DNA from: a virus
Taxonomy: Duplodnaviria; Heunggongvirae; Uroviricota; Caudoviricetes
DNA: 4,895 nucleotides
IMG/VR virus record: IMGVR_UViG_2684622618_000028
Strand: one strand, 5' to 3'
A model generated the notes under the pieces. The model made no database searches. It was not told the origin of the DNA and was given only the letters and a program-made list of their open reading frames with translations. The translations under genes were made by a program, and so were the position numbers. Below, in pieces: positions 3,531 through 4,185 of this stretch (positions are counted from its first letter, which is position 1; each line of letters starts with the position of its first letter).

Positions 3531-4185
3531 ATGACAAATACAGCAAAAATACTCAACTTCGGCAGAGGTAACTTTGCCGGACAGGAGCGTAATGTGGCAG
3601 ATCTCGATGATGGTTACGCCAGACTATCAAATATGCTGCTTGAGGCTTATTCGGGCGCAGATCTGACCAAGCGACAGTTTAAAGTGCTGCTTGCCATTCT
3701 GCGTAAAACCTATGGGTGGAATAAACCAATGGACAGAATCACCGATTCTCAACTTAGCGAGATTACAAAGTTACCTGTCAAACGGTGCAATGAAGCCAAG
3801 TTAGAACTCGTCAGAATGAATATTATCAAGCAGCAAGGCGGCATGTTTGGACCAAATAAAAACATCTCAGAATGGTGTATCCCTCAAAACGAGGGAAAAT
3901 CCCCTAAAACGAGGGATAAAACATCCCTCAAATTGGGGGATTGCTATCCCTCAAATTGGGGGATTGCTATCCCTCAAAACAGGGGGACACAAAAGACACT
4001 ATTACAAAAGAAAAAAGAAAAGATTATTCGTCCGAGAATTCTGGCGAATCCTCTGACCAGCCAGAAAACGATCTTTCTGTGGTTAAACCGGATGCTGCAA
4101 TTCAGAGCGGCAGCAAGTGGGGAACAGCAGAAGACCTGACCGCCGCAGAGTGGATGTTTGACATGGTGAAGACCATCGCGCCATC
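3531..4185 (+). pseudogene. O: replication initiator O, frameshifted by a 23-bp iteron duplication and 3'-truncated by the assembly gap
   Basis: N-terminal 130 aa match lambda O (MTNTAKILNFGRGNFAGQERN...). After the duplicated 23-mer the lambda O reading (SKQGDTKDTITKEKRKDYSSENSGESSDQPENDLSVVKPDAAIQSGSKWGTAEDLTAAEWMFDMVKTIAP) continues in a different frame, while the original frame stops at 4139. The sequence runs into the N gap at 4186. Confidence 0.85.
3879..3987. repeat. ori-lambda iteron array, five ~19-bp inverted-repeat iterons (lambda has four), followed by the AT-rich region
   Basis: ATCCCTCAAAACGAGGGA (3879), ATCCCCTAAAACGAGGGA (3899), ATCCCTCAAATTGGGGGAT (3923), ATCCCTCAAATTGGGGGAT (3946), ATCCCTCAAAACAGGGGGA (3969). 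The 23-mer at 3923-3945 is exactly repeated at 3946-3968. AT-rich tract CACAAAAGACACTATTACAAAAGAAAAAAGAAAAG follows. Confidence 0.85.

Follow-up and report, generated by a model that had tools for sequence, protein, structure and literature searches.

The window analysed here, a stretch of 4,895 nucleotides from IMG/VR record IMGVR_UViG_2684622618_000028, is part of prophage Sp1/CP-933H at the thrW locus of Escherichia coli O157:H7 and carries a lambda-type replication origin inside the O gene. It is 100% identical to the chromosome of strain Sakai on both sides of a scaffold gap, with window positions 1-4185 corresponding to NC_002695.2 299869-304053 and positions 4236-4895 to 304320-304979. 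The Sakai annotation describes this region, located beside thrW, as 'prophage Sp1, lambda-like phage' with the gene order intD (pseudogene), N remnant, hypothetical gene, cI, cro, cII, O (pseudogene), P (pseudogene), tail fibre genes, and pinE. Queries spanning the junction of the truncated integrase and N genes (int'-N') and that of the truncated P gene with tail DNA (P'-tail) matched 216 and 205 records, respectively, and all full-length matches among those listed were O157:H7 or O157-sized genomes. The coordinates of the individual features are given in Table 1.

Within O, the 23-bp sequence ATCCCTCAAATTGGGGGATTGCT is present exactly twice in the window, in perfect tandem. Tandem Repeats Finder reported a 23-bp period over positions 3923-3978 with 2.4 copies, 100% matches and a score of 112, and none of 200 dinucleotide-preserving shuffles contained a match to the 23-mer with three mismatches permitted. 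A pattern scan revealed five iteron-type sites, with start-to-start distances of 20, 24, 23, and 23 bp; all belong to the imperfect inverted repeats of 18-19 bp known from lambda as iterons (ITN) 1-4. Four iterons each are annotated in the records of lambda and phage 21, and ITN1, ITN2, ITN3, and ITN4 of the window are identical to their counterparts in both. The array of Sp1 departs from the four-iteron arrangement of ori-lambda in that ITN3 and its spacer are doubled. The two resulting sites in the middle of the array, ITN3 and ITN3', are identical at 19 of 19 positions, whereas other iteron pairs agree at only 13-16 of 19, which indicates a recent duplication inside an old repeat family. 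The A/T-rich arm and the palindrome to the right of ITN4 are kept and are identical to those of phage 21, with 1 nt differing from lambda. The same 10-bp sequence ATCCCTCAAA opens ITN3, ITN3', and ITN4, and in an alignment with lambda, phage 21, and the CB9615 prophage (see below) the insertion appears as a clean 23-bp block flanked by ATCCCTCAAA repeats. Since its units are exact copies of functional iterons, are in register, and end with ITN4 abutting the A/T-rich arm, the array forms a plausible set of O-binding sites. An initial annotation of this DNA, made from the letters alone, had proposed a perfect 23-bp tandem duplication of an origin iteron that adds a fifth to the four of lambda; exact search and Tandem Repeats Finder, the lambda and phage 21 records, and the alignment, which identified the unit as iteron 3 of the lambda origin plus spacer, bear this out.

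The same annotation had predicted that the duplication shifts the O frame and that the peptide LKLGDCYPS is read once in each of the two frames, and translation confirmed both; the shift is +2. The O frame starting at the ATG at position 3531 leads through SLKLGDCYPS into out-of-frame sequence, which ends with a stop codon at 4137-4139, giving an open reading frame (ORF) of 202 aa, designated O'. Frame +2 encodes SLKLGDCYPS again, followed by SLKLGDCYPSKQGDTKD, which represents the remaining O sequence, and taking out either 23-bp copy gives back a single open O frame. In agreement, the O pseudogene of Sakai comprises 923 bp, that is 900 + 23 bp. Minus one copy, O is identical to phage 21 O at 900 of 900 nucleotides and its product to lambda O at 299 of 299 amino acids. 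No other indel was present in Sakai O compared with phage 21 O after deletion of one copy, and the compensating downstream indel that the initial annotation had wished to see checked does not exist. The 23-bp duplication is the only lesion in O. The Pfam domain Phage_rep_O, covering residues 22-115, is entirely retained in O', and iteron binding by O resides in its amino-terminal half (PMC4488673). Therefore, O' is probably an origin-binding, P-blind fragment made during the SOS response. A search of the Protein Data Bank sequences with O' yielded no solved relative. The intact O beside an intact P that characterizes ori-lambda is missing in Sp1, as O is shifted after residue 142 and P is cut after 21 codons.

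Three facts might favour the second reading offered by the initial annotation, that the extra 23 bp are a repeat-expansion error of the draft behind the window: the window is a scaffold with an N gap 218 bp downstream of the 23-bp repeat, O157:H7 has multiple copies of O genes, and contigs of drafts are mis-joined at these genes. However, the same 46 bp are found in about 202 complete genomes, which come from many different laboratories, were sequenced with many technologies, and include that of Sakai, finished by Sanger sequencing. These records, to which also EDL933, TW14359, and EC4115 belong, are ≥ 99% identical to the window over the 655-bp O stretch, which is only possible if they contain the duplication. 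Moreover, O is annotated as a pseudogene in Sakai and as 'frameshifted' in the RefSeq records of EDL933, TW14359, F7386, DEC4E, 10671, and others, and the exact 202-aa product occurs on 488 contigs as 'Partial O replication protein for prophage CP-933H'. The duplication is genuine, and the chance of an assembly error is negligible. The split O has been part of public annotation since the first O157:H7 genomes, and the duplication itself is thus a known pseudogene lesion. No exact match to the five-iteron junction was found among the GTDB species representatives, and the duplication was present in 0 of 133 phage records with this type of origin. Approximately 1050 genomes that matched a 91-bp iteron query with 98% coverage and 84.6% identity were set aside, as they contain four-iteron arrays aligned one iteron out of register rather than five iterons.

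An exact-pattern scan of IMG/VR gave seven contigs with the five-iteron pattern, of which five were ordinary Sp1. The sixth, L005 (IMGVR_UViG_2541047164_000016, 11300-13112), has the five-iteron patch in an O-P-ren-nin context resembling that of Shiga toxin (Stx) prophages, with an intact P and with Stx-sized ORFs of 319 and 89 aa. It is Sp15-like on both flanks of an Sp1-like patch, its variant sites are interleaved, and it has a private +A in a homopolymer. In the seventh, L011 (IMGVR_UViG_2531839234_000006), the five-iteron patch stands next to an undeleted left arm. Both contigs were considered as intermediates, L005 because it combines the duplication with an intact P and L011 because of its left arm, and both were rejected: no complete genome reproduces L005 (best match: the six-iteron Sp15, 97.8%), and no place in the complete genomes covers ≥ 80% of L011. 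Both contigs look chimeric and probably are collapsed-repeat chimeras; a rare gene conversion is the alternative.

A search with a 'repaired' query, consisting of window positions 2700-4185 minus one 23-bp copy, identified 13 complete O157:H7 genomes in which an otherwise typical Sp1 carries a one-copy array and an intact 900-bp O gene (Rafaela_II, ECP19-798, Al Ain, Z1812, UTME-4, JEONG-1266, SS52, 3-5-1, 08-3918, 26_141088, PNUSAE151637, 272, and 7386WT). Together with the 202 two-copy genomes these add up to 215, in agreement with the 215 genomes having the int'-N' junction, and correspond to about 6% of the finished O157:H7 genomes, the other 94% or so having two copies. Gene conversion from paralogous O genes, such as that of Sp15, was considered as a route to the one-copy state and is ruled out by the flanking bases: Sp1-specific bases are kept on both sides of the site, including the lambda-type ITN3 as opposed to the Sp15 variant. 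Hence, the one-copy strains represent precise unit losses or strains that never gained the unit, not conversions.

The Sp1 haplotypes were defined by the single-nucleotide polymorphisms (SNPs) at 822 (T ancestral) and 2839 (A ancestral), polarised with the thrW prophage of E. coli TST3 described below. The ancestral haplotype T,A is found with two copies in DEC4E and 2017C-4109 and with one copy in Rafaela_II. Haplotype T,G occurs with two copies in TW14359 and F7386 and with one copy in SS52, 08-3918, JEONG-1266, 26_141088, and 7386WT, and haplotype G,A with two copies in Sakai, EDL933, ECP19-198, 10671, and 7.1_Anguil and with one copy in ECP19-798, Al Ain, and Z1812. As both copy states exist on all three haplotypes, the character is homoplastic. 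DEC4E, which has two copies, shows the most ancestral structure and has kept an NYN-domain gene that was lost elsewhere by a 576-bp deletion. Strains 10671 (two copies) and Al Ain (one copy) have a rare 3-bp footprint at position 1594 in common. Most likely, the unit was gained once, in an ancestor common to the sampled Sp1 elements, and was afterwards lost precisely and independently at least three times, probably five times or more. Losses are preferred over repeated gains because a perfect tandem repeat is deleted much more easily than a duplication arises at a 10-bp microhomology, and because of the 202:13 ratio. The repeat behaves like an unstable two-copy variable-number tandem repeat (VNTR).

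The element of strain TST3 (NZ_CP154406.1 3740839-3782301) is an apparently intact lambda-immunity prophage at thrW. It shares the protein accessions of cI, Cro, CII, and O with Sp1, has four iterons and an intact P, and further contains ren, nin, Q, genes for lysis and head, and tail genes of the baseplate type. Sp1 differs from it by three deletions, the 23-bp duplication, and about four SNPs. The first, 5.3 kb long, has brought the 3' part of int next to codon ~20 of N, with the junction in a 7-bp overlap (1123-1129), the 576-bp deletion mentioned above is located at window position 1597, and a very large deletion extends from P codon 21 into a DUF2612-type tail gene (junction at ~4297/4298). 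The int' gene is 99.6% identical to the intact TST3 integrase gene up to position 1129, and the N' side is 100% identical to TST3 17847-18321; of the int'-N' junction query only the right half matches 'antitermination protein N'. A 47-bp att core (window 145-191) recurs in Sakai at the opposite end of Sp1 (locus L001, 16201-16247). The TST3 prophage provides a good model of the Sp1 progenitor. The early regions of TBE6 and DX6 are near-identical to that of the TST3 prophage. Strain CB9615 (NC_013941.1 302544-325000) of O55:H7, which is related to O157:H7, has a full-length lambdoid prophage at thrW with a lambda-type O and four iterons. It was considered as the ancestor before the duplication and rejected, since with an integrase of 76% identity and a different immunity region it is another phage; the occupant of thrW is thus unlike in O55:H7 and O157:H7.

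Sp1 is replication-dead whatever the state of O, because P is truncated after 21 codons and int is truncated. Asadulghani et al. rated its integrase and replication functions as defective and observed in Sakai no circularisation, replication, or packaging of Sp1 and no DNA amplification after mitomycin C treatment; the residual early genes were clearly induced by mitomycin C, and in those cells Sp5 and Sp15 underwent strong amplification (PMC2669165). The initial annotation had called the element replication-defective and domesticated. The former is correct, the latter is supported by nothing observed here. Also the implied cause, the frameshift in O, does not explain the defect, which follows from the loss of P, cut and fused to tail DNA, and the truncation of int.

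The remainder of the window shows that the Sp1 early region is almost pure lambda (Table 1). The stretch of perfect identity to lambda at the cII-O junction presumably contains oop and its promoter pO, as it does in lambda, although neither is annotated in the records fetched. An Rfam scan of the window returned only the tRNA and no model match for oop or nut. At position 2827 in OR2 three alleles occur: lambda and TST3 have T, Sakai and most other O157:H7 strains C, and 7.1_Anguil A. Position 2839, located 2 nt past the -35 hexamer of pR, separates the Sakai lineage (A) from that of TW14359 (G). These differences affect an operator and a promoter under a repressor that according to the literature still responds to SOS induction. 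The gap falls in a part of O that is near-identical among several lambdoid prophages of O157:H7, which explains why many database entries of O' are 'partial' (184-199 aa).

Table 1. Features of the Sp1 window (positions in the window; a dot indicates that no strand is assigned).
Feature	Position	Strand	Remarks and basis
thrW, tRNA-Thr(CGU)	115..190	+	Prophage attachment site; ARAGORN, Rfam tRNA, Sakai annotation
int'	205..1129	-	Integrase gene without 5' end; Pfam Phage_integrase; annotated pseudogene intD
N'	1123..1179	-	First ~19-21 codons of antiterminator N; ORF translation, junction query
OL operators and pL region	1395..1500	.	100/106 identical to lambda; alignment
ECs_0273	1555..1944	-	129-aa ORF at the lambda rexAB position; ORF, Sakai annotation
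cI	2072..2785	-	Repressor; four residues differ from lambda cI (T3A, K71N, R129K, D139G); alignment, annotation
OR operators with pR and pRM	2786..2885	.	98/100 identical to lambda; alignment
cro	2886..3086	+	Protein identical to lambda Cro; alignment
cII	3205..3498	+	Protein identical to lambda CII; alignment
cII-O junction	3440..3570	.	131/131 identical to lambda; alignment
O'	3531..4139	+	202-aa ORF; residues 1-142 native O, last 60 out of frame; ORF translation, Pfam
Iteron array, lambda-type origin	3879..3987	+	ITN1 3879-3896, ITN2 3899-3916, ITN3 3923-3940, ITN3' 3946-3963, ITN4 3969-3987; pattern scan
23-bp unit, first copy	3923..3945	+	Iteron 3 plus TTGCT spacer; Tandem Repeats Finder
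Remaining O (linker and start of C-terminal part)	3941..4185	+	Frame +2, continuing through the gap; translation, Sakai comparison
23-bp unit, second copy	3946..3968	+	Sole difference from phage 21 O; repeat finding, alignment
A/T-rich arm and adjoining palindrome of the origin	3988..4050	+	Alignment
Scaffold gap	4186..4235	.	50 N, standing for 266 bp in Sakai (O 3' end and O/P overlap)
P'	4236..4297	+	First 21 codons of P; ATG formed by the last two N and base 4236; Sakai comparison
DUF2612-type baseplate/tail gene	4298..4545	+	3' remnant, fused in frame to P'; Pfam, junction query
Tail fibre gene ECs_0280	4545..4895	+	5' part, running off the window; ORF, Sakai annotation

The ORF ECs_0273, which lies downstream of cI, has no Pfam match and crosses the 576-bp deletion junction relative to TST3, which identifies it as a fusion of an NYN-domain protein and a partial hypothetical gene as annotated in TST3 and DEC4E. 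One RefSeq record labels it a PIN domain protein, and it may be the remnant of a moron or defence gene of the repressor operon. The adjacent positions 1594-1597 are a hotspot for the insertion sequence (IS) IS1203/IS629: many O157:H7 strains carry the IS in one orientation and Z1812 in the reverse one, and the hotspot was also seen in the Sakai-type loci L013-L015, L019, L021, L022, L024, and L027. Among IS-free strains Sakai has no footprint, JEONG-1266 and 26_141088 have +1 nt, and Al Ain and 10671 have -3 nt. The same positions form the left end of nested deletions relative to TST3, one of 156 bp in DEC4E and one of 576 bp in all others, by which the NYN-domain gene was removed. The site looks like one of repeated IS insertion, adjacent deletion, and excision. 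Use of the IS as a four-gamete marker was dropped in favour of the SNPs at 822 and 2839, since the differing footprints (+1, -3) suggest repeated excision. Outside the window, a segment with tail fibre and tail fibre assembly (tfa) genes beside pinE (Sakai locus L001, 10231-12464) was found in both orientations among O157:H7 strains (compared loci: L014, L015, L018, L022, L030), its two states comprising either a 795-bp fibre gene and a 594-bp tfa gene or a 711-bp gp53-like gene and a 444-bp tfa gene. This shows that the Pin invertase of the dead Sp1 still flips the segment.

We consider it probable (about 0.8) that iteron 3 of Sp1 was duplicated by slippage, that this put O out of frame without consequence for replication, and that the resulting unstable repeat was lost again several times. 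Iterons 3 and 4 start with the same 10 bp (ATCCCTCAAA) at a distance of 23 bp, and the event would have been slipped-strand mispairing of these repeats in the course of replication or an unequal exchange between them. Either would yield precisely the product seen, a doubled iteron 3 plus spacer and thus a five-iteron array with a +2 frameshift. The translated part of O would then consist of residues 1-142, including the whole origin-binding domain, and 60 junk residues, and the P-recruiting C-terminal part would be left untranslatable. The duplication would have had no replication effect of its own, as Sp1 had lost, or also lost, P, int/xis, and all late genes; with the partner gene P deleted anyway, it would have been passed on by clonal descent as a neutral scar. 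The perfect tandem, being unstable, would then have undergone precise loss several times within O157:H7, by which an intact O ORF was regained. The five-iteron array and O' most likely have no function.

Several points weigh against this view. Both the neutrality of the duplication and its direction of change, one gain and several losses, are inferred. The P deletion is present in every Sp1 examined and may have come before or after the duplication. By raw parsimony, several gains cost about the same number of steps as one gain and at least three losses. No three-copy expansion was found among the complete genomes, although a symmetric VNTR model might predict one. Furthermore, JEONG-1266 and Rafaela_II show long-read noise in the form of 1-bp deletions nearby, and F7386 and 7386WT, which are possibly one isolate, differ in copy number, so that part of the one-copy class could be technical. 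Strain 7386WT has three private substitutions in O (window-equivalent positions 4068, 4069, and 4113) that match neither Sp15 nor lambda, and F7386 has the same IS insertion, two copies, and none of the three; these substitutions could reflect sequencing error or laboratory divergence of one isolate.

The origin of Sp1 resembles ori-lambda, as represented by lambda and phage 21, in its location inside O, the sequences and order of the iterons, the A/T-rich arm, and the palindrome. It differs in having five iterons, an O gene frameshifted by an insertion that is not a multiple of three, and no intact P, and in showing no in vivo replication (PMC2669165). The origins of the Stx phages 933W, P27, and VT1-Sakai (Sp15) also have near-identical iterons in O whose number has been changed by local duplication. 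In these phages a duplication of 39 bp at the ITN1 end, which keeps the frame and adds 13 aa, brings the number of iterons to six, and plasmid replication depends on the additional iterons; strong binding occurs only at the four iterons nearest to the A/T-rich arm, and three iterons have been reported to be enough for lambda (PMC7466680). The Stx duplication is thus in frame and belongs to functional phages, whereas that of Sp1 comprises 23 bp at ITN3, is out of frame, and resides in a dead prophage. Alignment with Sp15 showed that the window has neither the 39 bp (iterons 1'' and 1') nor the G-to-A variant in ITN3. By analogy, the event in Sp1 may be regarded as the out-of-frame counterpart of the iteron gain in Stx phages, in a prophage where the frame no longer matters. 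The repeat also resembles VNTR loci, being a perfect two-copy 23-bp repeat with precise unit loss recurring on different backgrounds; it differs from them in having two alleles only (two copies or one) and in the absence of expansions among the complete genomes. The origin mutations r99, a 12-bp deletion in the A/T-rich arm, and ti12, a point mutation (PMC4488673), were considered as precedents for iteron slippage and not used, since neither is an inter-iteron deletion.

The frameshift might also have been selected. If the O knockout came first, it could have been favoured as protection against replicative killing by a derepressed O-P-ori module, with the P deletion following later. Replicative killing by a trapped ori-lambda is well documented and survival requires the loss of initiation (PMC3349717), the early genes of Sp1 are SOS-inducible, so that a live module would fire (PMC2669165), and the absence of further mutations in O is compatible with a recent single knockout. 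However, P is truncated in every Sp1 examined, with one copy or two, and this deletion suffices alone; the 13 genomes with an intact O persist and pay no penalty, inactivation by a perfect tandem duplication is reversible and ill suited to the purpose, and no finished genome with both the duplication and an intact P was found. The idea is mechanistically sound, but found no support here and appears unlikely. Very unlikely, in our opinion, is an active role of the remnant as a decoy or dominant-negative element, in which SOS-induced O' and/or the five-iteron array with oop/pO hinder the replication of lambda-type phages. As targets, superinfecting lambda- or 21-type phages or the resident Stx phages Sp5 and Sp15 would be conceivable, with exclusion or a tuning of Stx induction as the effect, at the same low likelihood. 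The complete Phage_rep_O domain of O' and the amino-terminal location of iteron binding (PMC4488673) would fit such a role, as would the near-identity of the iterons of Sp15 and other Stx phages to those of Sp1 and the mitomycin C induction of the Sp1 early genes (PMC2669165). Phages with rep-lambda are blocked by plasmids carrying oop and ITN3-4 (PMC3349717), and multicopy ori-lambda titrates O and thereby arrests lambda (PMC4488673). Like the oop+ ori-lambda+ plasmids and multicopy pOri1, Sp1 has kept the cII-oop-pO-O' segment with ITN1-4, the oop/pO part being 100% identical (131/131) to lambda and followed by ITN3, ITN3', and ITN4. This likeness is one of sequence: the published inhibition needs multicopy plasmids (20-40 copies per cell), whereas Sp1 is a single chromosomal copy. 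In addition, Sp5 and Sp15 amplify strongly in Sakai despite the presence of Sp1 (PMC2669165), and the one-copy field revertants lacking O' argue against strong selection.

Even more doubtful is a contingency switch, that is, a two-copy repeat kept because reversible ON/OFF toggling of O is useful. That each of the three Sp1 haplotypes is found with two copies and with one, and that the change is precise, is in line with this idea. However, an appreciable rate is plausible only for the change from two copies to one, as the reverse requires a rare microhomology duplication, three-copy alleles are missing from the complete genomes, and O has no partner P within the element. A combination with the preceding idea, which we regard as a long shot, is that upon SOS induction the toggling repeat yields O' in the two-copy state or full-length O from a trapped origin in the one-copy state, and that these products act on the Stx prophages. 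If this were true, O' or O would act on the near-identical iterons of the Stx prophages or together with their P protein, the copy state of Sp1 would alter Stx-phage replication, toxin output, or amplification of the thrW region, and the mitomycin C induction of the Sp1 early genes would be accounted for.

To the known lesion this analysis adds the proof, by means of phage 21 O, that it is the sole one in O, a progenitor-like prophage in strain TST3, and its apparently repeated reversion within O157:H7. The duplication is a true sequence feature that annotation pipelines should not 'correct', and contigs such as L005 and L011 call for caution with prophage catalogues made from drafts. As a homoplastic character the locus is a poor phylogenetic marker; it might serve as a cheap indicator of slippage rates. 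If O' or the restored O affected the replication of Stx phages, the locus would gain some relevance for toxin expression. For biology at large the finding carries little weight, as it adds a further scar to a cryptic prophage that is already well catalogued in a reference pathogen; it does provide a clean natural case of a change in iteron number, probably by slippage, in a lambda-type origin.

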